Source of the DNA: a virus
Direction: 5' to 3' (one strand)
Length of the DNA stretch: 64,000 bases
IMG/VR virus record: IMGVR_UViG_3300027769_000875
Coordinates: 1 to 64,000 of that record
The position numbers were made by a program, and so were the translations under genes. How positions within the stretch are numbered: position 1 is the first letter of the stretch; every line of letters begins with the position of its first letter. Positions 25,724 to 59,208 of the stretch are shown here, piece by piece. The notes beneath the pieces are model-generated. The model was not told where the DNA came from. It did no database searches and saw nothing but the letters and a program-made list of their open reading frames with translations.

Positions 25724-25886
25724 TGACATAATTAAAGATTCTTATTTCATTATAATGAAAAGAGAAACTACACTTGATAAGTTAGCACTCCTTAAAAGAT
25801 TTTTAAAGATGAAGTACAATATTTCAATTGGCATAGAGTCTTTGAAAAGAAGGCATCTTGAATATCAAAAGCAGAAATTCAAATAA
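25707..25886 (+). CDS. Small basic hypothetical protein
   Basis: LKRFLKMKYNISI...L.RR. Confidence 0.55.
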   Translation: MTAFLDDIIKDSYFIIMKRETTLDKLALLKRFLKMKYNISIGIESLKRRHLEYQKQKFK

Positions 25887-34061: not shown

Positions 34062-34634
34062 TTATGCGTTATAAGTGATAATTAAATATGCCCCAGGATA
34101 ACTAACTGTGTCATAAGCAAATATACCACTAGGATAAGTATTTAAAACTGAGCCAGCATCCATATTTATACTTGTATTTGGTGGTATATCTACATATGTA
34201 ATACCAGAGTCAAAGGACACTAATGCTTTAGCTGTACCAATATTTGCAAACGATACTGAATAGATAACTTCAGATATACTACCAGTTGTGTTATTAGATT
34301 TTATGATAGTTGGATTTATTGAAATACCTGTAGCAGGTCCAGGTGCAGGAGCAGTGGGTGTACCAATTATTCCTGTTTGCTCAACGTACCATTTTTCCCA
34401 ATCTACTTGAGTATATGGAGTGCCAGTTTCATCTAAAATGTCGCCATTATCAATACTTAAGTTATAAAAAGGTTGAACTTGTGCTTGTTCTCTGTAGAAA
34501 ATGATGTCATATACCGCATCATTTAGATTTTGTTTTTTTACAAGAACATTTGATGATGATTCTTCAAATACTGTTTCACTATCATTATCAACAACAAATA
34601 TATAATTTGATGCTTTATAAACTCTATATGCCAT
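34062..34634 (-). CDS. Putative structural protein
   Basis: First gene of the fibre operon; Pro/Ala linker between two domains. Confidence 0.6.
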   Translation of the reverse strand: MAYRVYKASNYIFVVDNDSETVFEESSSNVLVKKQNLNDAVYDIIFYREQAQVQPFYNLSIDNGDILDETGTPYTQVDWEKWYVEQTGIIGTPTAPAPGPATGISINPTIIKSNNTTGSISEVIYSVSFANIGTAKALVSFDSGITYVDIPPNTSINMDAGSVLNTYPSGIFAYDTVSYPGAYLIITYNA

Positions 34635-34701: not shown

Positions 34702-37700
34702 TTACTGATTACGTTTGAGAACGTCAATTCTATAATTAGGATCAAACATATCTCTAAAGTTTTTGATACCAGTAAGGTCAACAATATCTTTTACAATTTT
34801 TGCGTCACCCTTTTCATATGCTCCTGATTTTCTAGAATAGAATGCATCTTTCCAAATAGATTGATACAATTCACTATCATAGTCAGGATCTGCTTCTTCA
34901 CCACCATTCATTGTCATTGCCATACCATACTTGATACCATGATTTAGCATTTTAATAGTAGCTGAAAATTCCCGCACAAATGGAATTGCTGTAGTAAAAT
35001 TCTTAACGTATTCCTGAGAACCTTGTCCAACAGGGAACATTGATACAGTTTCACCCTTTGTACCCCAGATGACCCTAATAGCATTACCTTCAAGCATGCT
35101 GAGTTCCTCATCATCATCATCTCTACGTTTAACAAATGATAGCAACATCATACTGATGATAGTTAATAGTGTCATTGCTATTGCATCTCGTCTTGCATGG
35201 TGTACACGTTTTGCATAGAAGTCACCAACATCCTCTGTTCGTATAACTTTACCTGTCTTAGGGTCTTTGATTACATAAGTTTTTAAACCGCCAGACATTC
35301 CCATCTTAGAAAGAGTATTTGAACCTACCAAAAATTCTTTCATTGTATTTCCTACGCCAAACAACCTCATTGATCTTGCAAATGCTCTCCAGTATCCTAA
35401 TGCCATCTCTGATCCTTCCCAGTTAGGACGTAAGTATCCAAATCTGTTTAAGAATTGTGGAACTAAGAACTTTCTAAAGAAGAATACCATTTTCCCAAGT
35501 ATTCTACTTTCAAATTCTGTTTGGTCATTTCCTGCATAGTTACCTTGTGCTCTACGCATTTCTGAATAGATAATGTTTCTTACACGTTTTTCATCTTCCT
35601 TTGTATAGTTTACATCCTTTCTAATTGCAAGATTACCATTAGCATCTTTATAATAGGCTTGATGTGCAGGTATCATAACAATATTCCCACTAGCATCTCG
35701 CTTAAAAGTTTTTTCACCAGTAACAGGATCAATAGATTCTATTTCCTCAAATCTATAGTTATCCATAACTGCATACATTACTGTAACTGCAATTTCTGTA
35801 TCACCTTTATCTTGAAGCATGTATCCTAGCTCCCCAACCTGAGTAAGCTTTTCTGCCATTCTTCTTTTTCTTGAACCAGAAGAGTTTTGAAAATATTTAA
35901 TAATGTCCTTTTGCGCAGGATTCATCATTCTGTAAAGCATCGTGCTTTCACTTAAGTCAGAAAGTCTACCCCAGTCTTTTAAATAATTTGCTAGAAATCC
36001 ACTATAACCATATACTTTACCTTTTGCAAATAACCAGTTTCTTTTACTATAATGATCACTGTCATTACCACCAGCAGCAAGAAACGCTTGAACATTACCT
36101 GAAGTGTAGTTTTTTGTTTGGTTCACAACATCAAATCCAATTCTGATGAAACTAGTATACTTGAAGAAAGAGTCTACTACTTTCTTCATTTTTCTACTTG
36201 CTTCCTGAGTACTTTCAGTAATACCATATAAGTACTTACCATTTTCAAACTCAATGATCTTCAAAAGGTTATCTATTTCACCAAGCTTTGTTTCAATATC
36301 AATTTTTGTTTTTTCTCCAGTCTGTGGATCTGTTACATAGATTTCACCTTTCAAACGATCTTTTGCTAACTGATTACGTTGAAGTCTGAGAAATTCAATA
36401 AATCCTTTTGACACAGGAGCTACTTCTTGCATTGCAATATTCATGTGTGCTTCAGTGGTCCATTTCATAAATGACCCAACTGCATCAGTAGATTGTATTT
36501 CTTCATCAAGTTGATTAGAAAAACGCATACGTATACGAGCACCAATGTCACCATAGATATTCTCTGACATGTCCTGCTGACCTTCAGCTTTCAAATGTTT
36601 ATCTACAAACGCATTATACTGCTTTGCAAAACCTCTACCAAATCCTTCATTTGCTATACTCTCAACAAGACTAGCAGCAAAACCAGGAACAGTATAACCA
36701 ATTGTTCTACCTTCAATACGCTTTTGCATGCCAAAGAAAGTATCCATCATTGAATTGTAGAACTCAAACATCTGAGGATTCCTCAACAAGTCAAGATATT
36801 TAGCATTGATATTTTTTGTTGGAGCTTTGCCAGGATCAATAACAAAATGTCCTTCATCTGATACTATGATTTCTTTTGGAAGAGGAATACCATCATTACC
36901 TTTAATAAATGCAGGGTTATATGCACCTCTTTCAATTAAAAGTCTACCTGATATATTTAACTCAGTTACCTCTTCAGGATTTTCTTGCAATGCTTCAATT
37001 TCTGAATTGCTAAGTTTTCTACCATCTAATGTCCAATTACCAATACGCAAACGTTTAAGTTTATAGTATTTAGGATTAGGTACAGTTTCCATATATTTGT
37101 CAGCAACAGTGGAAGATGGAAGTCTTTCAAAGTTAAATGACTTAGGAACCTTGTTTGCTTTTATGTCATATCCAGTTGCAATACTTTGGTATTTATTGTA
37201 GTGAGTTTTCTCATACCAATTTCTAAAAGAATTTTCAACCTCACCAAATCTACGTACAGAAAATATGACATTGTTTTCTGCTTCCTCTATTTCCTCTGCA
37301 ACACCTTTTGTTCTTGCAACAGCCAAGTTAGATTGAGCATTATTCATCTCATTGAATGCAGTTTGTAATAGTCTGTACTGTGTGTCAAACTCTTCAATAT
37401 AGTTAGGGTTCAATTGAAATGAAACAAGTTTTCTAATCTCAGCAGATATTTCTGCTACCTTCTTGCGATCTTCTTTGTCAAGTGTACTCTTTTCTGTTTT
37501 CTTACCTTCAATGATATCTTCAATCTCAGCTTCAATTCCATCTAATTCTGAAATCTCTTCATCAGTAAGATACTTTGGATTAAAACGTCCTGCATTTTTA
37601 TAAGGACCCATAATCTTTTTCTTCCTATCTATAAGCTCTTTGATTGTAGGATCACTAGAAACTATTTCTGATCTTTGGTCATAAAGTTCATTGAGTTGGT

Positions 37701-40700
37701 CATACCAATCTGCAGTTGGTCTGGTCACTGTGTTATCCTTATACCACTTATCTAATTTCTCAGGACTATCAGAAAAACGCACACGTGCATTCTTTTCCAT
37801 TACCCTAAAGTAATTATCATTAGTATCAAACTCATACAAATTATCTAACTCATCAAGATACGCAGCATACTCAGGACTTCTCTCTGCAGCCTCCATGCGT
37901 AACTTTTTTGCCTCTGCGTCAAGCTCTTTCAATCTATCAAAGTCAGACTCTTCTAGTAAGACCTCATTACCTCTTCCCACGCTATATAAAATAACTTCTT
38001 GCTCAAGATATATCTCTTGCAACTTATCGCGAATATCTTCTGGTAACTTTAACTGAAGATTATAAAAAGAATCAACGTATGGTAGATTAGAATTTTCTAA
38101 CATCCATGCAATCATTGCACGTTTGTGCTCATCTCTTTCAGATTGTTTTGCTAACAACGCATCCTTTGCTTCTTGTTCAGCCTGTGCATCAGTACCAAAT
38201 TTTTCTTGGTAAAGTGAATACGCCTCATAATATTCTCTATTGAGTATTCTAAGATTTTGCTGAAATCCTCTATAAGCATTTTCATATTCTTCACTGTATG
38301 GTTTTACATACACAAGTCTACGTTGTTGCTTTATTTCTTTTGTTTTAGGGTCTTCATATGAGACAGTAATCCACTCAGAAGTAAGTTTATTTATATCTTC
38401 TAAACTAAATCCTTGATCCTGTAGTGAGCGTAACAATCTATCAAACTTTTGTAACTGAGGGTCTGACATTGTGTTAAACTCAGCTTGAGCCTTATGTTCT
38501 TTAAGCAATGTGGTAAAAGCAGACACTGCTAAATCAGAATTAGATGCTGAAGCAATTGCAGAATCCATCATCCATCCTCCAAGTATTGTATCACCACCTT
38601 CATAAGGGTTTTGCATTCCAGGATAGAATGGTGAGGTATGATCAGTAATACCATTAATGTATTTTTCCATTGCCTCTTCGCTGTACTCAAATCCATTAAG
38701 CAACATTTCAATTTGCATAATACGTTTTTCAACTCTTTGAATTTCAGCAAGAACTATATCTCCATTAGGACCCATTGCTTCTTTTACTTTCTCTTTGAAG
38801 TTTTTATTCATCAAAGAAAAAACAGAATACTTGATTTTTTTATAAATGCCCAACTTTGGATTGCTCTTCAGCATTTCAAGTTGGTTTTTAAGATTTTCTA
38901 ACTCAGGTATAAGAGCCTGACGCTTTTGTTCATTGACACCAGAGAATACTTTTTCTCCAGGTGACATGAGAACTTTAACAGCATTCATAGTACCAATACG
39001 CTTAAAGTCTGACTGTATTGACTCAACAAATATAGATAGTTGTGTTAACCTTTGTCTGACAGGACTTGTTACTGATAACTCACTACCTTCAGCAGACGCT
39101 GCTTCATTTACAACCTCATTCATGAAATCAATGATTGTTGCCAAACTTGCACTCTTGTTAAACGCAATACGTACAGCCTCAAAGTTTTTACTTTGCTCTT
39201 TGCTATCAGTTGTTCCAAGATATAATTGAGTAGCTATTTTTGAAATGTTACTCAATGTCTCTAAATCATTTTCCATCACATTCAACGCATTAAAGAAGTT
39301 TGTTGAATTTAATAGAACTGATGGATTTGTTGTTTTTAACTTTTCAGCAATTTGCTTTAAGTTATTTAGTGTGTCCCTACGTGTTTTTAATAGCTTTTCT
39401 AATTCTTTGTCACGCATTGGTTTGTTTTGAGCATCTTGGATTTCTTGATATGCTTTATCAATCTGACCATTAATGACACTCTCAAGTACAGTTACAAAAT
39501 CCTGCATATTTTTATCAGTAGGATTTATGTCAAACAATTCTTCAGGTCTTTTATTTCTGATTTCTTCTTCAGTATACTCACCTGTTGGAACCTCAATTGC
39601 TACAGCTTTTTTAAAATCTAAAACAACTTTGTTTACTGTATCAATATCGTTAAACCATACACCATCAGTAGTTAGATTAACACTACGTGCTTGGTCATAA
39701 TAATCTTGATCTTCAAATACATGAAGAACACTTCCCTTGTAAGATTTATTATCATCATCAATCTGATACATCAATGCTGATATGGTTTTATTAGCAACAG
39801 GTATATCACTTTGTAATAAGATATTTTCATATACATCCAGTTGGAGCATCCAGGTATCATACGTTGTACGTACAGGAAGTTCTCTGAACTTTTCTGCTGT
39901 ACCTGGCTTGTTTCCAATTGGAAATTCTTTTAACGCTAAACCATACAAAGCTCTATCAACATTTACTTCTTGAGCACCTGTCAATGGATTTCTTTCAACA
40001 AGATATTTTACCTTTTTAGTTTTAAAATCATAGATATGCACTTTACCAACAGCATCAATCATTAGAATATCCAAACGTCCAATGACTTTACTACCTGTTC
40101 TAGATGTACCAACAATAGTTACCTCTGGAAGAATAATATATCCACTTGCATTTTTAGAATTAACATGTGACACAAGGCCCATTGCCATTTCATACATCTC
40201 CTCTTTGGAAAGCTTATCAATATCAAATGGATTTTTCTTTGTGTAATTTTCATACACTTTGTCAAAAAACTCTTGACTATAAACCTGAGCTATTGTTTTA
40301 TTTTTTGCAATTGCCTCCTCTTGTGCAAGTTCTAAAAGTTCATGCATAAATGTACCAAACAACTTAAATGCTTCATACTCTTTAGGATCACCTTTGAATT
40401 CTGAAGAACCAATAAATTTAGACACACTTAATGTTTGTTCAACAGCAGTACCATTTTTGGCTGCTTCTATGTTGCTTTTTAAAAACTCTTGGTATGCATC
40501 ATTCATATCAATAAGCTTTTGCATTGTAGCTTTTTGATTTTTGTTTGCACGAAACTTCATTGTCTCCAAGACCTGGCGTTGTTGTACAGCCCTTGATAAT
40601 TTAAACTGATCAGATGCAAGAGAAAGTTGTTCATCCTTATCCTGAATTCTTAAGTCTTTTAATATTTGCTTTGCCTGCTCAATTGTTGGCACTTCATTGC

Positions 40701-40797
40701 CATTACGTACAAATGCAGTCATTGCATCTGCTTCACTACTCAAGGCTATCACCAAGTCTTTCCAGGCTTGGTCATTTGGATTTGGACATGCACTCAT
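34702..40797 (-). CDS. Giant virion protein (2031 aa) with N-terminal PD-(D/E)XK nuclease-like domain
   Basis: FGTFMHELLE...PEVTI...GRLDILMID..GKVHIYDFKT...QLDVY; hydrophobic helix near the C-terminus. Confidence 0.75.
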   Translation of the reverse strand: MSACPNPNDQAWKDLVIALSSEADAMTAFVRNGNEVPTIEQAKQILKDLRIQDKDEQLSLASDQFKLSRAVQQRQVLETMKFRANKNQKATMQKLIDMNDAYQEFLKSNIEAAKNGTAVEQTLSVSKFIGSSEFKGDPKEYEAFKLFGTFMHELLELAQEEAIAKNKTIAQVYSQEFFDKVYENYTKKNPFDIDKLSKEEMYEMAMGLVSHVNSKNASGYIILPEVTIVGTSRTGSKVIGRLDILMIDAVGKVHIYDFKTKKVKYLVERNPLTGAQEVNVDRALYGLALKEFPIGNKPGTAEKFRELPVRTTYDTWMLQLDVYENILLQSDIPVANKTISALMYQIDDDNKSYKGSVLHVFEDQDYYDQARSVNLTTDGVWFNDIDTVNKVVLDFKKAVAIEVPTGEYTEEEIRNKRPEELFDINPTDKNMQDFVTVLESVINGQIDKAYQEIQDAQNKPMRDKELEKLLKTRRDTLNNLKQIAEKLKTTNPSVLLNSTNFFNALNVMENDLETLSNISKIATQLYLGTTDSKEQSKNFEAVRIAFNKSASLATIIDFMNEVVNEAASAEGSELSVTSPVRQRLTQLSIFVESIQSDFKRIGTMNAVKVLMSPGEKVFSGVNEQKRQALIPELENLKNQLEMLKSNPKLGIYKKIKYSVFSLMNKNFKEKVKEAMGPNGDIVLAEIQRVEKRIMQIEMLLNGFEYSEEAMEKYINGITDHTSPFYPGMQNPYEGGDTILGGWMMDSAIASASNSDLAVSAFTTLLKEHKAQAEFNTMSDPQLQKFDRLLRSLQDQGFSLEDINKLTSEWITVSYEDPKTKEIKQQRRLVYVKPYSEEYENAYRGFQQNLRILNREYYEAYSLYQEKFGTDAQAEQEAKDALLAKQSERDEHKRAMIAWMLENSNLPYVDSFYNLQLKLPEDIRDKLQEIYLEQEVILYSVGRGNEVLLEESDFDRLKELDAEAKKLRMEAAERSPEYAAYLDELDNLYEFDTNDNYFRVMEKNARVRFSDSPEKLDKWYKDNTVTRPTADWYDQLNELYDQRSEIVSSDPTIKELIDRKKKIMGPYKNAGRFNPKYLTDEEISELDGIEAEIEDIIEGKKTEKSTLDKEDRKKVAEISAEIRKLVSFQLNPNYIEEFDTQYRLLQTAFNEMNNAQSNLAVARTKGVAEEIEEAENNVIFSVRRFGEVENSFRNWYEKTHYNKYQSIATGYDIKANKVPKSFNFERLPSSTVADKYMETVPNPKYYKLKRLRIGNWTLDGRKLSNSEIEALQENPEEVTELNISGRLLIERGAYNPAFIKGNDGIPLPKEIIVSDEGHFVIDPGKAPTKNINAKYLDLLRNPQMFEFYNSMMDTFFGMQKRIEGRTIGYTVPGFAASLVESIANEGFGRGFAKQYNAFVDKHLKAEGQQDMSENIYGDIGARIRMRFSNQLDEEIQSTDAVGSFMKWTTEAHMNIAMQEVAPVSKGFIEFLRLQRNQLAKDRLKGEIYVTDPQTGEKTKIDIETKLGEIDNLLKIIEFENGKYLYGITESTQEASRKMKKVVDSFFKYTSFIRIGFDVVNQTKNYTSGNVQAFLAAGGNDSDHYSKRNWLFAKGKVYGYSGFLANYLKDWGRLSDLSESTMLYRMMNPAQKDIIKYFQNSSGSRKRRMAEKLTQVGELGYMLQDKGDTEIAVTVMYAVMDNYRFEEIESIDPVTGEKTFKRDASGNIVMIPAHQAYYKDANGNLAIRKDVNYTKEDEKRVRNIIYSEMRRAQGNYAGNDQTEFESRILGKMVFFFRKFLVPQFLNRFGYLRPNWEGSEMALGYWRAFARSMRLFGVGNTMKEFLVGSNTLSKMGMSGGLKTYVIKDPKTGKVIRTEDVGDFYAKRVHHARRDAIAMTLLTIISMMLLSFVKRRDDDDEELSMLEGNAIRVIWGTKGETVSMFPVGQGSQEYVKNFTTAIPFVREFSATIKMLNHGIKYGMAMTMNGGEEADPDYDSELYQSIWKDAFYSRKSGAYEKGDAKIVKDIVDLTGIKNFRDMFDPNYRIDVLKRNQ

Positions 40798-40798
40798 T

Positions 40799-41380
40799 TT
40801 ATAAACACTTTATTTTATCAAGTATATCATCGTTATTGTAGTTGAGACCTCTCATGTTTGCAACAAGATCTCTAGCAGCTTTTGCGAATTGATCTATTCT
40901 CATTCTTTGACTGCTCTCACTATAAAGATACTCAATTACCGCAGGAGAAAGGTCAAGATTGGCCATTTCTTCATACATATTGTAAAGAGGATTGTCAGAC
41001 TCTGGGTTATCAAATAAGTATTCATCAGAATATTCTATACCAGCTCTTCTTGCATCTTCCTCTTGAATTGCTCTTGCTTCTATTTCATTGAATGCTTTTA
41101 GATACTCATTGTAATATATTGTAACCAAATCCTGTGATGGATTAAATACAACTTCTTGACCATCCATCATTTCTCTACGATACGCAACGTTGCCTTCAAA
41201 GAGTTTGTTGTTCTTGTTTACAATGCTTTCAGCAACTCTAAATGCTTGAGCCTTGCCACTTGGAAAAGCAGCATTGCTAATAAACAATGTATCAAAAGAT
41301 GTTTGCTGAATGTTCTTTGTTACATTAGGAGCAATTGCTTTTTTGATAATTGATCTTTTTATATCAGTTCTACATTTCAT
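40799..41380 (-). CDS. Hypothetical virion-module protein (193 aa) with Cys at both termini
   Basis: MKC...ILDKIKCL; 1-2 bp spacing to neighbours. Confidence 0.75.
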   Translation of the reverse strand: MKCRTDIKRSIIKKAIAPNVTKNIQQTSFDTLFISNAAFPSGKAQAFRVAESIVNKNNKLFEGNVAYRREMMDGQEVVFNPSQDLVTIYYNEYLKAFNEIEARAIQEEDARRAGIEYSDEYLFDNPESDNPLYNMYEEMANLDLSPAVIEYLYSESSQRMRIDQFAKAARDLVANMRGLNYNNDDILDKIKCL

Positions 41381-41382
41381 AG

Positions 41383-50300: not shown

Positions 50301-53300
50301 CATCAATTTTGGAAAGATTAATTAAATCTTTTAATGAACTTGTATCAAGTCCAAACTGAGGTAGGTTTTCTGCAAGCCATTGTGATTCTGTCAAGATATC
50401 TTGCTCAGTAGCAACTTCAATACCTGTACCTTCAGAAATAGAGAATGGAACATCATCGTCAGTAAAGTCAATTACATCATTGTCTTCATCATTCTGATTT
50501 TCGTCTGTAACATCTTTTTCTGTTTCAGCAGTATCATTTAAGACGATTGGCGTACTACTAACATTATCAGGTGTAATTTTTACAGGAGCATTTTCTTTTT
50601 CTGCAACATCATCCACAATAGCTTTATCTTCAAGTGTCTGGTCAAGATTTTCAGAAGTTTGATCAGCCATTGATACATTAACAGGAGATTTTGCAACAAG
50701 ATTAAATGATCTACGACCAGTAGACTCATACACTTTTACATTTTTCATGGATCTGTTGTATGAACTTCTAGCATCACTTTGAGTAGACAATGGTGAGTTG
50801 ATTTTCAAAACACGAACACCTTCGTCATTTTCTCTTGAGAATAAATCTTCTATTTGGAAATTTGTATATGGAGCAAAGTCTTCATTAAGTGCATCTAAAA
50901 ATTCACCATACACATTATCAGGATTGGCCTTGATGTATTTTGTAACAGCATCTAGTACACTTACAGTAAACTTTTCTTGTGCAATGGATACTTGTTGTGC
51001 TAGGTTTTTAACATTTAGAGATGCTGTTGGTAGTTTAGCTAATTCAAATACTGTTGTATAGAATTGTACCAAATCATCTGCCTTGGATAAATCTAATTTT
51101 GATAACGCAATGTTTTCTGATTTTACAATACCAACAAGAGACCCTTGCGTAAGAGCTTTTGATAATGTCATAATATCCTTTTCAGGAATTATAAAGTTAT
51201 ACGCATACTTAGAATTATCAGACTTAAGAATGATATTACCATAGCGAGAATCTTTTGCACCTCTGTATGGACGTATTTCTACTTGTAATGCTCTTCCATT
51301 TTTAATAGTAGATGTTGCAAAGTCAATCGTCAACTGTGGTTCTGCTTTACCTGGCATTCTTACAGGATCAAACTGATACATTGTCTTCTGCATTGCTCTT
51401 ATGTTTGCAGATTTATTTGCATTAGTTGGATCAATAATTGTTGCCATAGTTGTAATAAACTTGGCAAAGAACTCAGGGTTTTGCAATTGATATACCTGAT
51501 CAACAATAGCATAAGAGATTTCACCAGTAGATGGAAACTTCAATACAAAATGCATTGTCTTTTGAACACGTGTTAATGGTTGATTTGTTTTCATCAACTC
51601 AGTCAATCGTGAATCCTCTTCTTGAAATAATGTTTTTACCTTTTCATTTAAGTTAAGAACATCATCAATATACGTTTTCTCAGTAACAAGTTTAACTTCT
51701 CCATCTGGCATTGTTACTTTGATTCTTTCATTGGCTGCTAAAAAGGTAGAACTAACATAGTTAATGGTAGCAAACTTTGGATCAAATGTTTTGTAAAAGT
51801 AAAAAGGTAACTTACGTTCCTCTTCAGATACTGCATCTCCCTTTGCATCAATCTGCACTACTGTTACTGTCTGACTAAATTGAGGATTCTTTTCTACAAG
51901 CTCTTTAAGAGTTGTCTTTACAGGTTCTGAAGAACGCGTGTTTGTAAAGTCATACATCTGTAAGAAGTCATCAGTAACATCAACTGATGTCCCTACATTA
52001 AATGCTTCTTCAATCTTAGCTGCTATCTTGTCTTTAAATTCTTGATAGAGTTTTTGAGAAGCAACAATGGAAAGAATGTCAGAATTATTTAAGTCTTGTA
52101 TATTATTCCCTGCTCTTTTAATTGACATGTCCTGAAGCATCTTTAAATGTCCAGGATTTGTAAGATCAAGTTTTTCTGTAGAGTTATCGCTTGACACAAA
52201 TACAAAGTTGTCCATTGAGTATATGTAGAACTTTTTACCTGTTGCAAGTATCTCACCCACTAATGCAAAATCTTGTTCACTTGCTTTTGGTCTTGACACG
52301 GTAAGAACTTTACCATTTGGATTAGACTGAAGATATGCAACCTGAGTTGAGTTCTCAAAAGTTTCATAATCTCTTTTTGCAAGGCCTGCATATTCTGTTT
52401 CTGTAGCTGCAAGTTCTTTTAATCTTTGAACACGCATGTCACCAAAGTCACTCAGCTTAACAGCAGTGATTTTAACACCAGAAGATGGTGATGCCATTTT
52501 ATTTAATTCAGTAAGAACAGTCACATGATCTTCTGGATTGACAGCATCTATTGTTAATCCAGATGCAAAGAAGTCTTCTTTGAATACTTGCTTACCATCA
52601 TTTGAGTCAGACCAGTCAGCAGGTCTTGCTGATTTTTTTGCTATGATTGTTGCAGGATCAATTTCTGTAAGTGTTCCATCTTTCTCAATTTTATTAAGCA
52701 TGCCATCAAATTCAATAGCTTCAATCATAGAACCATCCTTCAATGTGACAAGGACGTTATCTAACTGAACAGCATCTGCAACAGAATCAATAGGAATATA
52801 ACTTGACTTAGGTTGTAAACTGTCAATGTAATCATCTATTGCAGAATACAACACTTGCTTGTATGATTCATCTGCTTTAGACAAATCGCCAATTACTCCT
52901 TTTAAGTCACCACGTATTTGGTCAATAGCATCTGTTCTATCTTCTATTGTGTCAAACTTATAAGTAGAAACATAATTTTTCAACAACTGAAGAACACCTC
53001 CAGCTTTTGTCAAATCTTGAAGAGTGATTAACGATTGCTTACTTAACTCCTCAATGACTTTTGATATGCCATCATAAGTTTGAGGTCTTGGTTTTTTTAA
53101 ATCAAAAAGCGTAAAAGCATTTGATAGATACTTTGCTGTATCATCAAACATGGAGTCTGTTCCAAGATTTATAATATCTAATCCTTTACCAATGTTGTAT
53201 TTCTCTTGATTTAAACCAGAAAGCCCATTGTATATATGGGCCATATTATGTAGAGCTAATTTCTTTTGCTCCTCTGTTAAATTTGCACTTAGAATGAATC

Positions 53301-53397
53301 TTGCTGCGTTATCATAGTTTGTATATACAGTTGGACTTAATCTAATTAAATTCTCTACTACAGGTATATATTGTTCAGTAGTTAAAACACATCCCAT
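41383..53397 (-). CDS. Giant virion RNA polymerase (two-barrel, crAss-like) fused to a zincin domain, 4004 aa
   Basis: GVRIPTEDKRSM and AGSDFDIDSL (DxDxD, 45175-45189), DGAKDP; YHEAFH (50212-50226) followed by EEILAD. Confidence 0.88.
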   Translation of the reverse strand: MGCVLTTEQYIPVVENLIRLSPTVYTNYDNAARFILSANLTEEQKKLALHNMAHIYNGLSGLNQEKYNIGKGLDIINLGTDSMFDDTAKYLSNAFTLFDLKKPRPQTYDGISKVIEELSKQSLITLQDLTKAGGVLQLLKNYVSTYKFDTIEDRTDAIDQIRGDLKGVIGDLSKADESYKQVLYSAIDDYIDSLQPKSSYIPIDSVADAVQLDNVLVTLKDGSMIEAIEFDGMLNKIEKDGTLTEIDPATIIAKKSARPADWSDSNDGKQVFKEDFFASGLTIDAVNPEDHVTVLTELNKMASPSSGVKITAVKLSDFGDMRVQRLKELAATETEYAGLAKRDYETFENSTQVAYLQSNPNGKVLTVSRPKASEQDFALVGEILATGKKFYIYSMDNFVFVSSDNSTEKLDLTNPGHLKMLQDMSIKRAGNNIQDLNNSDILSIVASQKLYQEFKDKIAAKIEEAFNVGTSVDVTDDFLQMYDFTNTRSSEPVKTTLKELVEKNPQFSQTVTVVQIDAKGDAVSEEERKLPFYFYKTFDPKFATINYVSSTFLAANERIKVTMPDGEVKLVTEKTYIDDVLNLNEKVKTLFQEEDSRLTELMKTNQPLTRVQKTMHFVLKFPSTGEISYAIVDQVYQLQNPEFFAKFITTMATIIDPTNANKSANIRAMQKTMYQFDPVRMPGKAEPQLTIDFATSTIKNGRALQVEIRPYRGAKDSRYGNIILKSDNSKYAYNFIIPEKDIMTLSKALTQGSLVGIVKSENIALSKLDLSKADDLVQFYTTVFELAKLPTASLNVKNLAQQVSIAQEKFTVSVLDAVTKYIKANPDNVYGEFLDALNEDFAPYTNFQIEDLFSRENDEGVRVLKINSPLSTQSDARSSYNRSMKNVKVYESTGRRSFNLVAKSPVNVSMADQTSENLDQTLEDKAIVDDVAEKENAPVKITPDNVSSTPIVLNDTAETEKDVTDENQNDEDNDVIDFTDDDVPFSISEGTGIEVATEQDILTESQWLAENLPQFGLDTSSLKDLINLSKIDGTVLGMFKDRIIYLNDTITGKGTIYHEAFHGVFRYLLTDTERKALVKQIMDDPKHADNFTSLSLKEFARVRNLSITNYDTLAELVAEEILADGFQKYMSKERKAKPKTALQRFFEMLKKLLNFFVKNRTQIEAVYDRVKTGYYKTATIKSDVFNGQVAYELIDGLVKYNNNEQGNVEKKNSTLSVSEQNQLIDMMVGVIFQDAVQSDTFETKFQRAADKILNEVYSMEKLVAQNPAAREQIEKDYGPLISSYRFILGARMKGLNVNDINLTGDSKYDNKANLNKIRLINGEVIDNTMGQYSFETLRRLVKDKYTKANSVQIARENDEYTLDSEEVEDTFNGDNANEVQDDERVSAQEELESNDFDSGMAEYNRMDSYVAQIRRFFSTLRSDQFDEKNGIYFPRMIDGQVLFPTLLKITAGINPKNIIDSIGVMSEQMIEDGYAQVGKDLQVIFNEIQTRTKADSNGVAQTNKQLLNLIVEVLHGVELNNVMFNVSTPRKINMEDITSGEELLRSESVNFRVFDKVVDADVTKKRNDIISGFIKKHSTDANNDEFKQAVQYLKNFATNFMTAPDILDGMVGQTMKLEKLTNEIHNAMITIGMRVPKSLVRLSLMGINKVENNINLDVDMRLQKFYDVNEDFVRQEQYLEKDFFRSLKIVLDASYLESGKPNSGIRNILDDEKSRNKDAKRLLTILKKASAYVVKYDPTEIPSVVKNAEGKPIYRFTKYNPLLLLGQRLNTMTLEEALADDPYFENTLRAFIEDNALLGPILRGEANEDSVKMQLFLDNFTVAMFGGVQQRIGDVTKKGQTFKSVDERSLHMLQVLAFMDKKVLRDKGGNEISTYLRSFHQLEATSTNFLISALYQPFTSKEAKQTNDKGQLLYQGKYLKIVEDLVAIVNQEYNRASREWNRRLDLKANFENGKSNDLINKYNAVLQDDNVTANVDDSSLRAYRFNILEDFFDDPNNQSLRDDLIDLAKKQVAFEEIDMQDLLSALNDYAQKEFQTYLEKLETLGLIEKLPINEKDKKAEIRPAVAALLPAEYYSSSMLPTSVKEGFAKRSLTDAYGTPHGTNEASAIEPIEKLLFDMFMNNWRNGLHLNQLMDGDMALNVKNAQDYVKRLKKIVASGSNMKNGTHKVAYMNTITAFIHEEFPQYGPYFNAEQIESDFTIPNNNIREELLEGFEKAKGNTVENVNGRVVKWADMMREIFDGQSISSLMHQIDMHDTLGRLDDRGLYILIAKHYRAITQDEARYLESMKIVNNAKKTITADRNVYHKQSESYIDRTDVSILDIAPQNDESIDDATARVYDELHGLYMAVYDLRKDRELAAEMPDAKNQITKIDIEIQNLYRDIHSYYRAMPHREMMHNILNSMELFQIDQLMDTTASKNATLLPIDVFFSERTEDGYINLKMAALDVPNSAKYLQVETSGVKDKAKHSVQSKLLLPANINEEEFRKIIETEVRKTGRTVSEGDIIAMQNIKTALNDYQLSLRQATKARLLYFTQVLRKGDDFDMGKLFTMIRDSLQQQNAPKNILDMFAVKPDGTPVFSPNLSLIRSTLEYYLLAQYSKNVTDEKVSGFKNFHESSFGYNVLFDTQENRVVTTQEIGENPKEFENTARYSSRPLGISVEEQADGTKLYYVEAIVPKPFFENAQQEQFYMDNLTRMFGVRIPTEDKRSMIALKVVDFTDSSKMNNIIVPHFVHLLAGSDFDIDSLFGRMMSYYKNGKGNYSLYGDYSIYENPEVGEFIEFMHYMAKHEDIAPAIKQRKQELINEGTIEMPGEGPLFEVMEALGFGDEKFRGAFTQVALKSKYTEQLDFTNYMFELTKESKELYVKAKEIAEQNPENRELAKTRNVYGKELGDLKAIRKESVRKQRQTKELLNYLDSVFEYQAIMDTLAKYGIPSNVSQYISQIGFSEMVSPKYQNKNLAASLQILANEAVFNFLYINQRSSTQEFKDILSAFGIDLKAITKKSNLFTPTNMIESKVENNMNKDGIGRTAVMNKFLSLASQYNLKLSDKAIVWAYQTIEGRIVLKDTFGQMNEKDQRVIAIIGNILGMFADGAKDPIPAALQMNEVNASTTLAMIGVGLDPEFALAFNFLPEVRQAALAVQQSQFALSEDLEQDYKFYNSAVKEQLADLIEKDESALNRLKAAGVVTPKSFKDMVILDNPLKIKIGFAPKKLSLYALKNNQLTPSAIGFEMVYDDNNQPLTENEMKIVLLLYYAKQAQQTWAINRAASITNLFKRLNPSLVAFDKMRDNINELKDEEKLFDKESAADLFGDNQVWSILSEALDDANEQFSKIFLERTPFFMPITTAFKGYFEDPKTISNTLTSFLALNKFKMTYPGSRKVNNPAIQSLLDNDDEVILRTFTPEYWFTNDLFTQVERFREKYPDNEFLKLLRQSESKNTATVLFNGKSYQGISERFISMISKAKVKGDYASKIADDIAFLYNQGGTDERQFVKSLFYHDLVRTGLQYKEGSFMAYMPAELKVPLSGYIDEFIQGIESVVQSKNFEEDFKSFMLNYTGEKSQDGVVKFFDEMFDQIAYAAASENNNRKIPKFRDKNNTRGVLFTINSKKPNFSKPIVKAFVDEKQEATKETLPEAKIKAMNYVLDALDLQFPEGTDLAKVDRINIADALGSEFTINLSGKNQKANITLGKMFGIQKDITEPDSVEFVFPSIMRIGLNTYVLQGIDNNASKGKSIGSNLYDSIMGTTTFSNIGTFAKYKVIPSQYASEALSPIAFSTENAETYKRYIDKKESIVFNTNIVDTNAGEKVGTDVKDENKKPDATKKPTENVVITDGISESQLKKNDPGVLQEGIDQETGVSQSQIDAGENSLAALMNILGKNPQPENAPKVPEIQRGRYVNYKGTTYIVTQQNANGTWQLYNPLLEGVKSKISVAEANMKALDMVAKIVDYKDSEYIVTSKNTIISLTTNKRMMWGEEDGNRKAILALAAQNRTIIKPNNRPSIDPTDENNC

Positions 53398-53409
53398 TTC
53401 TTTACGTAT

Positions 53410-56400
53410 TTATTTAAAACAAGAGTTTATCTTTCTCAGTTGATCTAAAATGGTCTCTTCAGAAACCTCACCCTCACTAACAAATTTACCAATTTTTTCT
53501 GAGATTTTGGCTAACTCTTTTTTGGTATCTTCTACAGTTTGAGTTGCTTTTTGTATTGCGTCATCATATTCAGCAATAAGTGTATCTAACTTTTCTACCA
53601 ATGCAGGGTTTCCTGCAAGATTTCTTTGACTAACAAGATCTTTTCTTTCTTTCTGATAGTCTGGTATAATAGCAGTTTCATAATCGTTAATGACAAACTC
53701 CAATGAATCAATGCGACTTTGTGTTCTTTTGTCTATCACAGGTTTGTTTGTGGTAATTGATTTTTGAATTGCATCTTTAATCTCAGCCAAAACTCTTTCT
53801 GTTTCAGCAACTGTAGTACGTTCAGGATATTTAATATCTGCTACAAGTTTTGCAAACGCAGTCTCATCAAAACCTTCTGGAACTTTAACATTAACTATTG
53901 TACGTCCACCACCTCTGCCAAACATGTCTTGACCCTCAATGATTACACCAAGCACTCCATTGTTGATGTAGTAATTGGTTTTACCATATCTTCTTAATTT
54001 AGATAGTTCTTCAGATTCATTGCCCATTTTTGTAGAGGCATCATCGCTGATAATACTTTCCATACCATTTTTTGTGGTAGATTGTACATTCAAATTTAAA
54101 ACTACAGGAGCTGTTGTTTGAATTCCACTTTTTTCTTTAGCATATAACTTTTTTAGTTTATCTATTACCTCTTCTTTAGTATTACCATAAACAGTCTCTA
54201 TATTTTCAAATATGCTTGCAGCATTATTTGGATCCCAATTTGGTCCAAAGTAGGTCCCTTCACCCCTAAACGCTCTATTAACTTCGTCAATGCTATATTG
54301 CATTCTCCTTTGTACATCATCTGTTGGTGCTTGTGCAGACATACTTTCAAGTCTGTCAAATAAATCTTGAACTGATTGCATAGGTAATGCAGGACCTCCA
54401 ACAAATCCTGAAGTTGTATCTTCAAAAAGATTTAATTGTTCTTGCTCTTGGCGTTCTGCCTTTTTTCTTTTTTGTTTGATTTTATCAAGAGGTACACCTG
54501 TTAGTATAGACTCTTTTATATCATCAAGATTACGTTTACCTTGTGGTATTTTGTAATACTCTTCTAAAGTTTGAATAGCAGTTTCATTTGCTTTATTGTA
54601 AGCACGTAAAGATATTTGTCCTCTACGCACCATTTGATCTACTTTATAAGTTGGATCTTCAAATGCTGTCAAGTCGCCTAGGTGCAATCTTGTCCAATCA
54701 ATATCTGTTCTTGCATTGTTAAGTTCATTTGCAAGATCATTTGCTTTTTCTTCAGATTCAATTTTCTCATCAGTAAGAGTTATTCCATTTCTAGAAACAA
54801 CGTCATAACCTTCTTCTGGATCTCCTTCAACAACAAATGGTTCTTGCTCATTCTCTGCTTTGTTTGTACCATCTTTACCAGTGCCATTAAGTTTTTCAAG
54901 TAACTCAAGTTGCGCTTGTGCTGCTGCATCAGCTGCATCTATTGTTGTGTTATCAAAGTTATCTAATGGATCTTTGGTTTCATCAAGCGTTCCTTCTGGT
55001 TGCTCAAATACTTGAGGAATTTCTTCGTCTACTGGTTCTTGCACAGGAGCATTTTCCTCTTCTGCTCTCAAACGTTCATCTTCTATAATAGACTGAATCT
55101 CAGATATTTCAGCAGCCTTTGCAGTCATAATTTCAACTTCACGTGGAGTTAAATCAATACCTTCAAGATCACGTCTTGCAATACTTTGCAATGTTATATC
55201 ATCAACTTCTTGATTCTGTTTGAAGCTTTCATACACCGTGTCTGATATTACCTCAATAGGTGTATTATTAAAATGCTCTACAACATCATCATTAGTAATA
55301 AGATTTCGCTCCATTGCCAAATTCAACACCTCATTCTCTGGCATTGCGTCAAGTTGTGCCATTTCAAATTCGCCAGTATTAACAAGAGCCTCTTTTGCTA
55401 AAGTTACTTTTGAACCATCCTGCACACCTCCATTTGCATTTTCATCAAAGTTTAAAGTTGATACAATAGAATCTACTTCATCTTTGTTAGCATTATATAC
55501 CTCACTTTGTCTATCAGACAATTGAACCTTTTGAGCAATTCTACGTGCAATAAGTGCAAGTGTATATCTTGGAACCTTTTTAGTTTTTTGAAACTCTTCA
55601 TACTGCATGTCGTTGATATCACCTGTAATGTCTTGAGTAGCATATTCATCAAGCATTTCAGCAATCTTGTCAGAAATTAAATCATTAAGTTTCTTAATGT
55701 TTTCTTGGGCAAACTTTGCGTTTTGCAAACCTGTGTTCTCATCAATACTAACTAGAACAAGATTCTTATAGTAGTCACTACTTGTAACAGCAGTAGATAG
55801 TTCCTCATATAGTTTAGCAGCAAGTTGTATTTTTTCTACAATATCTTCTAAATCTGAGTTGGAAGCTACACTTAAGATTATTTCTCGTAATCTATTATTC
55901 AGGTTATCTACAAACTCAAGTATTTCATATTTGAATCTACCATCTTGGATGTTTGTAAGTGTTTGGCGATAATACTCTGGATTAAACAACAAGTCCATTG
56001 CTTGTGTGTAGTCCTTAGAATCTTGCTCCAAACGCATGAAATCTACAACCTTATCAAGTGCATCACGTAACGATTGTTCTGATAACTGGTCTGATATGCC
56101 ATATTCTTTATTACGCAGATTGATAAATTCTCTAAATGTTTCTGCTATATCCTTATGATCTAAAGAGTAAACAGTTGTATTCTCATCAATAAGATTTCCA
56201 TCTTCATCGTAGTATTTGATAGAATTAATTGGAACTCCAACAAACGTATTATAGATTTTTTCTTTTTGATCTACTACCTCTCCTGTTTCAGTATCTTGTC
56301 TCATCGCAATAGTATCACGATCATCCCAAAATTCCATCCACTTATCATATAATTCTAATAAGCGTTTCTTATCTTTTATTTTTCCCTGTACTTGTTCTTT

Positions 56401-59208
56401 TTGTGCAGGTGTCATGTCTGTTGATTCTAAACTTTCTTCAAGAAGTTTAATGTCTGCAAGCATGTTACCTGACTCAGCTTTAAAGTTTTCAGGATTAGCA
56501 AGAACACGTAAGGCATACTCAGATGAGTTGGCCATTCCTGGGATTGCTAAAAGATCTTGAGATACTTTCTGTGCTCGCTCAGAAGCACGTGTTGCTTTCA
56601 TAGCATTAAGTGCTACAATACGAATTGCTTCTTCTTGAGCATTATGCATTATGATTGCAGTCATTTGTTCCTTTGATCCTTTTTCATACATCAAAGGATC
56701 AGGAAGATTGCGTACTTTTCTACGTATCCCATCAACAGTATCAGAATATTTTTTAACGTCTTTGGCCATTGCCTCAGTCATCTCAGCAGCAGAATTGTAT
56801 TTTGTATCTGAAAGTTTAATTCCAAATGCTGCTTCAAACTCTTCATTACTCATGGTCTTACCCATTTCACGAAGTGCTTGTTGGAAAGTAAGAATAGTAC
56901 CAGAACGATTAGCTGCCAATGCAGCACCAAGTACTGAATTATCCTGAGCATTTTGCCATTCATACTGATGACCTTTTGCTGCTGCTTCTGTCTGTGCTAA
57001 AGTAGAATCAACTTGGTTTGTAAAGTTTACAACATTGTCTTCAAACTTTTTACCTGACATCTGAGCCATGATATCATTTTGCAAATTGATATCACGTTTT
57101 AATTGCTCACGCATTTTTACATATGGATTCTCAGCAGGATTATCTTTGTACGCTCTTTCTGTTGCTTTCTCATTAAGATAACTTGTCATTTTACCAACAG
57201 TATGCGTAACAGGTCGTATCATAGATCCTGTCAATGCACCCTGTAAGAATGTTCTAAGTCCTTGTTTTGTGAACTGCTCATCAAGACCTTTATTAAAAGC
57301 TTGACCTAATGTATATTTAGTACCATTGTATTGTCCAGCATAATAGTATTTCCAACCAGCACCAGACATTTCCTGAAGGTTTTCTTGAATACCTTCAGTA
57401 ACCTCAAATTTTAGTAAGTCTTTTGCAAAAGCTTTACCTACCTCAAAGGCTGCTTGCTTTCTTCCAAAATCTTTAGCAATCTTTCCTGCCAAACCATATG
57501 TTCCAAAAAAACCTTTTTCATATGTTTTACCAAGAAGTTTGCTTGACTTCCACATTCTATTTACGCCAAGTGTGTTTTCAACACCCTCTTGTAAGATTTC
57601 TTTAGTCCATTTATTTGCTCCAATAAAACGATTAAATATAGTACCAAATTGTAATCTATTTGTGACTAGTAATAAGTTAAGATTTGTATTATAATTGGCA
57701 CTTGCTGATTTCATTGCAAGACCTTGCATTTTAGTAAACTCTTCTGCTGAAGGATTTTGACCTTCGTTGTCAGCACGATACTGCTCAACCATCATATCAA
57801 GAGTAGAACCATAAGATGTAACTGCTTCAAAGTTTGCCTCTGTAGAAGACATATTAAACTCCTGAGCCATGCGTCTCATGCCTTGCAATCCAATTCCTGT
57901 AAGCTTACCTGCATTTAATCCACCTTTAGCACCAGCTACAATCTTTTCACCATAACGTATTCCTGTACCAAGTATAGGCGTACCCTTTGCTAAATTGCCA
58001 GCAAGTTGACCAAATGATTTTGATTTGATAATGTTACGCATGTTTAGTGTGTAAATATCAAACACTTCTTTCATTGATGCACGCAATGCTTCAGAACCTA
58101 CTTTACCAGCACTACCTACAGCTTTTGCTTGATTAGCTTTCTGAGTAACCTTACCAGCTGCTGACAAAGCATCAGTAGATTGATTTGCAAATTGATATGC
58201 ACCTCTACCCATGTCAGCAACAAAATCAGTAAATCTAAATGCTGCTTGTCGTACCATTGAACCTGTACCTGCTCTAGCAGCTGTTTTAGCTCCAGCTACC
58301 GCTGCTTCTTTAGCACCAATACGTGTAGCTGTTGCACCAAATGATACAGCACCACCACCGCCAGTTGCAAATGTAATCGCTGCATCAGCAACAAGTTCTA
58401 ATCCTAATCCTGCAAATGTACCTAATGCAAAACCAGCATTACCTACAAACTCAGATACTGAACGTTTACTAAATATGTCATCTTCCTCTTCTGGTGGTAC
58501 AAACGTATAATTACGCATTGATTCTTTGTACTCTTCAAAATTAGAATCAATCATTTCACCTTCAGTGTACTTAAGCTTGTCCCAATCCCAATTCCAAATT
58601 GCTTCACCTATTCTTCCATAAGATGCAAAGTAATCTGTAAAAGTATTACCAAATCTTGTAGCAAAGCTGTCAAAACCTTTACCTAATGCGGATCCCCAAG
58701 TTTCTGCTTCAATATAACCCTTTTGCTTTTCAGGATTGAAGTAGTTAAACCCTTGAGGATCAAAATCATCTTGATATCTGAACATATCAATATCTTGACC
58801 TGCATATCTTGTTTTAGGACCAACAACTGGATTGATCTTTTCACTTAAAGTTTTTGGTTGAAATCTTTCAACAAATATCTCATTAGCATTTGAATCAATT
58901 ACTTGATTCATTGCGTTCATAAAATCACTTGGTTGGGGTGAAGGTTGTGTTGATATATTTGGTTTTGCAGGAGCAGAAGGTTGTCCAAAATTCTTTGCAC
59001 CATCCCCTGGTCCAGGAGCCACAATATTATTAATATCAAAAGATGGCGTAGATGCTTCAGACGTAGCTTGTATTTCTGCTGCGCCTAAATCTAGTGCATC
59101 TTCTACTGATAAGTTTTGCGACAAACTTGTTTCAGCACCCATACTTGCCTCAGCATTAGCAGCCATTTCTGCCAATTGCTGTGTTCCCATTTCTAGTTCT
59201 TCTGCCAT
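53410..59208 (-). CDS. Giant virion/ejection protein (1932 aa)
   Basis: Gly/Ala-rich hydrophobic segment (GFALGTFAGLGLELVADAAITFATGGGGAVSFGA), EGIQENLQ motif, helical body. Confidence 0.72.
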   Translation of the reverse strand: MAEELEMGTQQLAEMAANAEASMGAETSLSQNLSVEDALDLGAAEIQATSEASTPSFDINNIVAPGPGDGAKNFGQPSAPAKPNISTQPSPQPSDFMNAMNQVIDSNANEIFVERFQPKTLSEKINPVVGPKTRYAGQDIDMFRYQDDFDPQGFNYFNPEKQKGYIEAETWGSALGKGFDSFATRFGNTFTDYFASYGRIGEAIWNWDWDKLKYTEGEMIDSNFEEYKESMRNYTFVPPEEEDDIFSKRSVSEFVGNAGFALGTFAGLGLELVADAAITFATGGGGAVSFGATATRIGAKEAAVAGAKTAARAGTGSMVRQAAFRFTDFVADMGRGAYQFANQSTDALSAAGKVTQKANQAKAVGSAGKVGSEALRASMKEVFDIYTLNMRNIIKSKSFGQLAGNLAKGTPILGTGIRYGEKIVAGAKGGLNAGKLTGIGLQGMRRMAQEFNMSSTEANFEAVTSYGSTLDMMVEQYRADNEGQNPSAEEFTKMQGLAMKSASANYNTNLNLLLVTNRLQFGTIFNRFIGANKWTKEILQEGVENTLGVNRMWKSSKLLGKTYEKGFFGTYGLAGKIAKDFGRKQAAFEVGKAFAKDLLKFEVTEGIQENLQEMSGAGWKYYYAGQYNGTKYTLGQAFNKGLDEQFTKQGLRTFLQGALTGSMIRPVTHTVGKMTSYLNEKATERAYKDNPAENPYVKMREQLKRDINLQNDIMAQMSGKKFEDNVVNFTNQVDSTLAQTEAAAKGHQYEWQNAQDNSVLGAALAANRSGTILTFQQALREMGKTMSNEEFEAAFGIKLSDTKYNSAAEMTEAMAKDVKKYSDTVDGIRRKVRNLPDPLMYEKGSKEQMTAIIMHNAQEEAIRIVALNAMKATRASERAQKVSQDLLAIPGMANSSEYALRVLANPENFKAESGNMLADIKLLEESLESTDMTPAQKEQVQGKIKDKKRLLELYDKWMEFWDDRDTIAMRQDTETGEVVDQKEKIYNTFVGVPINSIKYYDEDGNLIDENTTVYSLDHKDIAETFREFINLRNKEYGISDQLSEQSLRDALDKVVDFMRLEQDSKDYTQAMDLLFNPEYYRQTLTNIQDGRFKYEILEFVDNLNNRLREIILSVASNSDLEDIVEKIQLAAKLYEELSTAVTSSDYYKNLVLVSIDENTGLQNAKFAQENIKKLNDLISDKIAEMLDEYATQDITGDINDMQYEEFQKTKKVPRYTLALIARRIAQKVQLSDRQSEVYNANKDEVDSIVSTLNFDENANGGVQDGSKVTLAKEALVNTGEFEMAQLDAMPENEVLNLAMERNLITNDDVVEHFNNTPIEVISDTVYESFKQNQEVDDITLQSIARRDLEGIDLTPREVEIMTAKAAEISEIQSIIEDERLRAEEENAPVQEPVDEEIPQVFEQPEGTLDETKDPLDNFDNTTIDAADAAAQAQLELLEKLNGTGKDGTNKAENEQEPFVVEGDPEEGYDVVSRNGITLTDEKIESEEKANDLANELNNARTDIDWTRLHLGDLTAFEDPTYKVDQMVRRGQISLRAYNKANETAIQTLEEYYKIPQGKRNLDDIKESILTGVPLDKIKQKRKKAERQEQEQLNLFEDTTSGFVGGPALPMQSVQDLFDRLESMSAQAPTDDVQRRMQYSIDEVNRAFRGEGTYFGPNWDPNNAASIFENIETVYGNTKEEVIDKLKKLYAKEKSGIQTTAPVVLNLNVQSTTKNGMESIISDDASTKMGNESEELSKLRRYGKTNYYINNGVLGVIIEGQDMFGRGGGRTIVNVKVPEGFDETAFAKLVADIKYPERTTVAETERVLAEIKDAIQKSITTNKPVIDKRTQSRIDSLEFVINDYETAIIPDYQKERKDLVSQRNLAGNPALVEKLDTLIAEYDDAIQKATQTVEDTKKELAKISEKIGKFVSEGEVSEETILDQLRKINSCFK

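Follow-up and report, generated by a model that had tools for sequence, protein, structure and literature searches.

The question raised by the locus described here is why four consecutive viral proteins, together 8,160 residues long, should have kept only six cysteines (Cys), each beside a terminus that faces a neighbouring gene product. No phages of the human gut are more abundant than crassviruses. By what means they package and inject close to a megadalton of protein, the enzyme with which infection begins among it, is an open question (PMC10172136; PMC13434306). The locus lies in the first 64,000 nucleotides of the IMG/VR virus record IMGVR_UViG_3300027769_000875 (positions 1 to 64,000, hereafter the window), where genes on the minus strand encode proteins of 1932, 4004, 193 and 2031 residues, designated A, B, L (for link) and Z in that order. 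A first-pass annotation, made by reading the translations, drew attention to the terminal Cys and suggested that each C-terminus pairs with the N-terminus of the next gene product, so that the proteins, among them an RNA polymerase, would be strung together for packaging and ejection.

Cysteines of the four window proteins

Translation of the four minus-strand open reading frames (ORFs) gives six Cys in 8,160 residues. There is one at every neighbour-facing terminus (6/6), none inside any of the proteins and none at either outer terminus of the set. The first-pass annotation had placed each Cys no more than four residues from a terminus; a recount of the translations agrees, with no internal Cys missed, and the end sequences that it quoted (ILDQLRKINSCFK, MGC, DENNC, MKC, ILDKIKCL and MSACPN), like its codon at 53419-53421, are all correct. 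Each of the six codons is TGT. Beyond the 34-62 kb block, the ORFs of the 118,973-bp genome contain 344 Cys in 25,002 residues (1.38%), a background at which approximately 112 would be expected in 8,160 residues and at which six or fewer have a probability of 2.5e-40. The chance that six Cys placed at random would occupy the six facing four-residue zones, one per zone, is approximately 1e-17. The pattern of the four proteins is confirmed as lying far beyond chance. The proteins that flank the set, of 892 and 190 residues, contain no Cys.

Conservation across related loci

An alignment-based contig scan yielded 78 distinct viral loci, at best-segment identities reaching as low as about 22-25%, whose ORFs were mapped to the window proteins by BLASTP. 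Pairing of facing ends was examined with no rule assumed, by taking every adjacent same-strand pair of ORFs of at least 150 residues in the 78 loci, 227 unique pairs in all. Concordance was found in 219 (83 with Cys at both facing ends and 136 with neither), and eight were discordant (Fisher p 6e-52, a value that ignores shared ancestry). Two of the eight go back to start miscalls in L051 and L053, whose second ATG yields an MSC start, as in the p-crAssphage annotation; three involve Cys-rich small genes inserted among the chain genes of L074 and L078, one a chain protein in L056 whose partner gene is not adjacent, and two are unrelated small genes. The inserted genes (L074 5286-6356, L078 10447-11772) encode 3, 4 and 5 internal Cys and no terminal ones, and the Cys pair of the chain proteins is kept across them.

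A database search found 66 homologues of B, at 95% to 26% identity. Every one of the 66 has a Cys among its final four residues, and positions 3-7 hold one in 62, with 0-5 internal Cys per approximately 4,000 residues. The four without an N-terminal Cys comprise one 5′ fragment, one possible wrong start and two single-Cys proteins of 4772 and 4967 residues, which end like the link protein and are read as chain-starting fusions like that of L038. Unique A-like homologues carry a C-terminal Cys (34/34) and no N-terminal one (0/30), and in unique Z-like homologues the N-terminal Cys is present (42/42) and the C-terminal one absent (0/40); the Cys-free outer ends that had been pointed out in the window are a property of the relatives as well. 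Free link proteins have a Cys at both ends (6/6 and 6/6). Among B-like ORFs mapped in the related loci, the N-terminal Cys is found in 40/60 and the C-terminal Cys in 60/66. Those lacking the former number 20, of which 14 stand first in their chain and six are p-crAss-like with a start miscall; these six also close their chain and have no C-terminal Cys, as predicted by the rule that a Cys marks each end facing another chain protein.

In 159 unique chain ORFs, terminal Cys occupy positions 3-7 from the N-terminus and -1 to -9 from the C-terminus, and internal Cys number 114 in 412,105 residues (0.028%). Usage of TGT and TGC in the pair test is 61/22 at C-terminal sites and 70/13 at N-terminal sites; since both codons are used, conservation acts on the protein. 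Conservation in homologues had been put forward as a test of the pattern, and it is found in the pairs and in the B C-termini alike, with the matching of each C-terminal Cys to the N-terminal Cys of the next protein retained down to approximately 23% identity.

The pattern is also found in named crassviruses. In crAss001, gp47 has only Cys2339 (position -3) and gp49 only Cys5, and gp50 has Cys5, Cys1334 and Cys2404. The gp47 gene lies on the strand opposite the gp50 and gp49 genes, and the terminal Cys are thus independent of adjacency or translational coupling. The phi14:2 proteins show it in pure form: the one Cys of g067 is its last residue, Cys1797, g066 has Cys3 and Cys2179 alone, and g065 has Cys3 alone; the record annotates these three from tandem mass spectrometry (MS/MS) of virions. 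p-crAssphage has a two-protein form, with Cys1956 of 1957 residues in gp45 and Cys3 in gp44.

These counts bear on the possibility that there is no link at all, and that Cys were purged as in N4-like phages, the terminal ones being tolerated leftovers or by-products of gene boundaries, for instance of translational coupling. Suppression of Cys in ejected proteins is documented (PMC11445570), and the window genes are separated by gaps of 1-12 nt, as such an explanation would have it. However, the background predicts a Cys in approximately 13% of 10-residue ends, where 100% of facing and 0% of outer ends are observed, and the N4-like ejected proteins, as the available text of the same source presents them, retain no terminal Cys (PMC11445570). 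The pattern moreover persists with opposite strands, with inserted genes (L074, L078), with both Cys codons and at approximately 23% identity, which makes an origin without any link highly improbable. An artefact of translational coupling is ruled out by the opposite strands in crAss001 and the use of both codons. Two other candidates were rejected: a lipoprotein or other N-terminal modification, with Cys just 3-7 residues from the start, and split inteins or trans-splicing, with no intein or Hint Pfam match in the four proteins at E 0.1 or better and only 0-9 residues beyond each Cys, too few for an intein half.

Moving cut points and the link protein

The points at which the set is cut into genes differ among lineages, and the places of the Cys pairs shift with them. 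In crAss001-type genomes the first protein ends just past the zincin region and a Cys pair stands at that place, which in the window lies inside B and has no Cys. L040 is cut within the Z-like N-terminal region, and a Cys pair is again present. The first two pieces are fused in L038, L049, L058, L059, L061 and L073, in proteins with no N-terminal Cys and 0-1 internal Cys, and nine fused B+L ORFs identified by BLAST carry the L module at their C-terminus with no Cys between the two homology blocks. Wherever a split was seen a pair was present, and the fused proteins examined had no such pair, the outcome that the first-pass annotation had proposed to look for. Its notion of pairing in gene order stands for the neighbours in the window; among relatives the order tracks homology instead, the first gene of crAss001 being on the opposite strand.

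L itself is conserved only in its last ~70 residues. This module ends either free proteins of 193-744 residues or, in many relatives, the polymerase protein itself, in agreement with the earlier description of the 193-aa protein as an insertable link, and C192 is invariant in 18/18 rows of its alignment. In the AlphaFold2 model of L the C-terminal module is predicted as three helices (predicted local distance difference test, pLDDT, 81-95), and helix 183-191 stops just before Cys192 (mean pLDDT 80-84 in the last two ten-residue blocks). A helix of the form ILD...K..C had been noted at two of the C-termini. The model is consistent with the helix of L; a C-terminal module common to the 1932-aa and 193-aa proteins found no support, with an hhalign probability of 3% and a best match to an internal segment, not the end. 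Residues 1665-1688 of A (54244-54315, minus strand) resemble the link C-terminal motif with Lys in place of Cys (hhalign probability 3%), and the first proteins of several relatives cease aligning near them. This segment may be a relic of an older break, or a chance resemblance. Complex prediction for L with residues 1-400 of Z gave scores of 0.19 and 0.28 against a mark of 0.32, values that count neither for nor against the pairing.

Identity of the proteins

Invariant columns among 29 aligned homologues of B include G-S-D-x-D-x-D, which covers DFDID at residues 2737-2741, together with H1058, E1059 and H1062. The Asp residues of DFDID are invariant also in a second alignment of 16 homologues. 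The same motif, at residues 1361-1365, is the catalytic motif of the phi14:2 gp66 RNA polymerase (preprint 10.1101/2020.03.07.982082), and a zincin-like domain is reported in a protein neighbouring gp66 (10.1101/2020.03.07.982082). When residues 2380-2780 of B were used in a tblastn search, 80 phage records were matched, all at less than 60% identity and with E values down to 9e-17; among them, under an annotation as putative RNA polymerase catalytic subunits, are crAss002, Carjivirus communis gp44 and crAss001. On the motif and these matches, the assignment of the 4004-aa protein as the putative polymerase-bearing protein of a crAss-like phage holds, as the first-pass annotation had it. 

Other searches returned little. 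PHROGs gave no family for any of the four proteins, and Pfam gave for them only the PD-(D/E)XK domain of Z above cut-off, with no match for the HEAFH region of B. Neither megablast of the polymerase gene nor tblastn of the 193-aa protein matched anything in the phage collection. Sequences in the PDB gave 0 matches with the whole 4004-aa protein (phmmer) and 0 with the catalytic-region profile. The fold looked for is that of the phi14:2 gp66 polymerase (PDB entry 6VR4). The AlphaFold2 model of B residues 2380-2790 is of low confidence (mean pLDDT 60.3); Foldseek found nothing in the PDB with it at E 0.001 or better, and in a wide search by VIA-align it matched only one long helix, at Z 5.5 or less. 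Precomputed Pfam lists give extra enzyme domains in the B homologues P0031, P0036, P0046, P0051, P0054, P0056-P0058 and P0061, namely RNase H (PF00075), PF08719, named the YbiA/DUF1768 ADP-ribosyltransferase family by one source, and PF13532. P0058 and P0061, the homologues with PF08719 and PF13532, contain 4-5 internal Cys.

Judged by homology with gp47, gp50 and gp49 of crAss001 and with g067, g066 and g065 of phi14:2, the four proteins probably form the virion cargo set. Cargo proteins of crAss001 have been detected in virions by mass spectrometry, in a study that ran reduced as well as non-reduced virion samples (PMC10172136), and the phi14:2 polymerase enters the host (10.1101/2020.03.07.982082). 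In the nuclease-like domain of Z, D257 and K259 are invariant in the homologue alignment. Residues 1719-1815 of crAss001 gp47 resemble Z residues 179-270 of this domain, with an E value of 1e-4 from a tiny database. A nuclease-like segment in the first protein of crAss001 and in the last of the window would imply that domains move along the thread.

Proposed joining and its alternatives

Taken together, the pattern makes it probable that the four proteins are joined head to tail by intermolecular disulfides in the particle. The order would be the 1932-aa protein, the 4004-aa polymerase protein, the 193-aa link and the 2031-aa protein, held by three disulfides (Cys1930-Cys3, Cys4004-Cys3 and Cys192-Cys4) in a joined species of approximately 8,160 residues and 924 kDa. 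End-to-end joining would permit equimolar co-packaging of separately translated pieces, and the joined species would exit through the tail as one partly unfolded thread whose bonds would come apart in the reducing cytoplasm of the host. With every Cys within 1-9 residues of an end, the joined chain would be nearly as thin as a single polypeptide, and the other Cys would have been purged so that no wrong cross-link is possible. 

Bonding of the paired thiols as disulfides in crassviruses is likely by analogy with phage A4. Electron cryomicroscopy (cryo-EM) of the A4 pre-ejectosome found Cys1715 of gp27 disulfide-bonded to Cys5 of gp26 (PNAS 2025, PMC12002296). The crAss001 particle has inter-subunit disulfides of its own, in the tail barrel, the fibre hubs and gp57 (PMC10172136). 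What the joining is for, be it packaging, ejection or release, we infer only. A wider reading, offered tentatively as possible rather than probable, is that the cargo is one thread of 6,000-8,000 residues which is cut variably and in which terminal Cys mend each cut. Such a thread would be packed as a unit (approximately 0.92 MDa here), exit in fixed order and be unhooked by the reducing cytoplasm, timing the release or activation of the RNA polymerase, and would be for split genes what the single chain of 3,500 residues is for N4.

The Cys might form disulfides of another topology, with the middle proteins (4004 and 193 residues) closing on themselves from N- to C-terminus and the first and last proteins pairing or homodimerising. 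The numbers of N- and C-terminal Cys fit self-closure as well as they fit a chain, and fusing or splitting a middle protein would keep the counts balanced. However, two-protein sets (L049, L058, L059, L061, L073, p-crAssphage and A4) permit only a heterologous C-to-N bond or homodimers, and in the A4 structure the bond is heterologous (PMC12002296). Homodimers would give no reason for the 0/30 N-terminal Cys in the first protein or the 0/40 C-terminal Cys in the last, and a single rule, a Cys pair at each break, covers every arrangement. Self-closure is on this evidence distinctly unlikely.

A second alternative keeps the terminal Cys as ligands, either of a metal shared by two ends, which the first-pass annotation had allowed for, or as an anchor to some other part of the virion, for example the portal or the inside of the capsid wall. 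Acidic C-termini, of which there are several (DENNC, DSEDPLKC), could supply carboxylate ligands to a metal. One Cys per end, however, provides two thiolate ligands only; anchoring to a third party leaves the Cys-free outer ends and the loss of both Cys in fused proteins unexplained; and the same signature in A4 is a disulfide (PMC12002296). A ligand role is accordingly considered unlikely.

A number of observations weigh against the disulfide chain itself. The chain proteins are made in the reducing cytoplasm, and no thioredoxin match was found in the genome of the window. The purge of Cys is not absolute: chain proteins of some relatives have up to 8 internal Cys, p-crAssphage has 2 in gp45 and 7 in gp44, and crAss001 gp50 has its C-terminal Cys at a distance of 9 residues from the end. 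The counts by pair and by protein class are phylogenetically non-independent, and the counts at the ends are compatible with self-closure of the middle proteins, which keeps a small probability. In the crAss001 reconstruction gp47, gp49 and gp50 are unresolved (PMC10172136). The phi14:2 preprint describes fused polyproteins as "likely cleaved into individual components" (10.1101/2020.03.07.982082), and if they are cleaved, continuity would not always be needed. The A4 bond sits within a folded ring with no obvious thread, and the A4 precedent is, by sequence comparison, an analogy and not a homology, the same device in another protein family. Homology of the window proteins to those of A4 was looked for and rejected, with hhalign probabilities of 0.7% (Z N-terminus against gp26) and 0.2% (link module against gp27) and no BLASTP matches.

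As to redox enzymes, Pfam found none in ten Cys-containing ORFs of the window, and a search for Erv1/Alr matched no control genome and hence says nothing on its presence. p-crAssphage (L083, Carjivirus communis) has an annotated thioredoxin and a truncated thioredoxin at 24459-25726.

Features of the locus and its neighbours

Table 1. Position of the chain genes, their Cys codons, motifs and flanking genes in the window.
Feature	Coordinates	Strand	Remarks
Chain protein A, 1932 aa, 215 kDa	53410..59208	-	Sole Cys is Cys1930, three residues from the C-terminus; no N-terminal Cys
Codon TGT, Cys1930 of A	53419..53421	-	Translation
Chain protein B, 4004 aa, 453 kDa	41383..53397	-	Only Cys3 and Cys4004 (final residue); HExxH zincin-type and crAss RNA polymerase catalytic motifs
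Codon TGT, Cys3 of B	53389..53391	-	Translation
Codon TGT, Cys4004 of B	41386..41388	-	Translation
HEAFH, zincin-type metallopeptidase motif, B residues 1058-1062	50212..50226	-	H1058, E1059 and H1062 invariant in 29 aligned homologues; motif alone
DFDID, catalytic Asp triad motif of crAss virion RNA polymerases, B residues 2737-2741	45175..45189	-	D2737, D2739 and D2741 invariant
Link protein L, 193 aa, 22 kDa	40799..41380	-	Only Cys3 and Cys192
Codon TGT, Cys3 of L	41372..41374	-	Translation
Codon TGT, Cys192 of L	40805..40807	-	Translation
Conserved C-terminal module of L, residues 126-193, ends ILDKIKCL	40802..41005	-	Alignment, BLAST, model
Chain protein Z (last), 2031 aa, 233 kDa	34702..40797	-	Sole Cys is Cys4; no C-terminal Cys
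Codon TGT, Cys4 of Z	40786..40788	-	C4 invariant in 18/18 alignment rows
PD-(D/E)XK nuclease-like domain, Z residues 140-291	39925..40380	-	Pfam PF12705, E 4.9e-07, 30.4 bits against a cut-off of 22
Cys-free 892-aa protein directly upstream, outside the Cys chain	59208..61886	-	Positional counterpart of crassvirus cargo proteins
Cys-free 190-aa protein directly downstream, outside the Cys chain	34062..34634	-	No function assigned

The 892-aa protein has 29 unique homologues with 0 Cys in 25,739 residues. It has no BLASTP match to crAss001 gp45, and its equivalence to a cargo protein is positional only. Homologues of the 190-aa protein in relatives have 0-6 internal Cys. The replication module of the window encodes a SegE-like GIY-YIG endonuclease (20439-20900, plus strand, E 4.7e-26) and a B12-type ribonucleotide reductase (28013-29920, plus strand). 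Beyond the window, a giant ORF of 1599 aa at genome positions 69743-74542 (minus strand) is without Cys, and ORFs of 542 and 407 aa at genome positions 94606-97494 are likewise Cys-free.

Comparison with known systems

Among the closest systems are the cargo sets of other crassviruses, which share with the window homologous proteins, the DFDID motif and the terminal-Cys topology. They differ in their cut points, the thread of the window being divided into four proteins, and the zincin region belongs to the second protein (B) in the window and to gp47 in crAss001. The word "cysteine" has 0 occurrences in the texts of PMC10172136 and the phi14:2 preprint, and terminal Cys are unmentioned in both. 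A terminal-Cys rule for crassviruses was not found in the literature searched, which covered main texts. The same literature did not yield a two-to-four-link chain through the virion RNA polymerase, conservation throughout Crassvirales or Cys pairs tracking gene splits. The statement of the first-pass annotation that no such system had been described nevertheless has to be narrowed: the single head-to-tail disulfide of A4 (PMC12002296) and the suppression of Cys in N4-like phages (PMC11445570) are already published, as far as the available texts of these sources go.

In A4, as in the window, two large proteins follow one another, the upstream one with a lone Cys close to its C-terminus and the downstream one with a lone Cys close to its N-terminus, and both Cys are conserved. 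The record of Anabaena phage A-4L has Cys1715 and Cys5 as the sole Cys of proteins of 1717 and 1114 residues, and the pair is kept in 3/3 other Saffermanviridae genera examined (Pf-WMP3, Pf-WMP4 and TR020). The C-terminal helix of gp27 sits in a cleft of gp26 (PMC12002296). In A4 a single bond joins two proteins, and the window has three proposed links among four proteins, one of them the putative RNA polymerase. In the available text on A4 the bond is seen as stabilising the structure locally, and no general rule is derived from it (PMC12002296). The same signature in these unrelated cyanophages suggests that podophages reached the solution more than once, and it could be used to find ejected protein sets in uncultured phages.

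Schitoviridae such as N4 and DEV resemble the window in having giant ejected proteins, including a virion RNA polymerase of approximately 3,500 residues, that are nearly Cys-free. Homologues of DEV gp71 contain 0.00075% Cys against 0.865% overall, which has been ascribed to passage through the periplasm (PMC11445570), and the polymerases of N4 and crAss phages are structurally distinct (PMC13434306). Internal Cys are absent from the window set, yet, unlike the Cys-suppressed Schitoviridae type, it has six conserved terminal Cys; with none retained in N4-like phages, the terminal Cys of crassviruses stand out. A conserved end-to-end link would explain how the pieces are loaded in equal number, why their exit order is fixed and how their genes can be split and fused freely. 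The N4-like polymerase is a single Cys-free chain, whereas in the window the chain is split into genes and a conserved Cys pair stands at each break.

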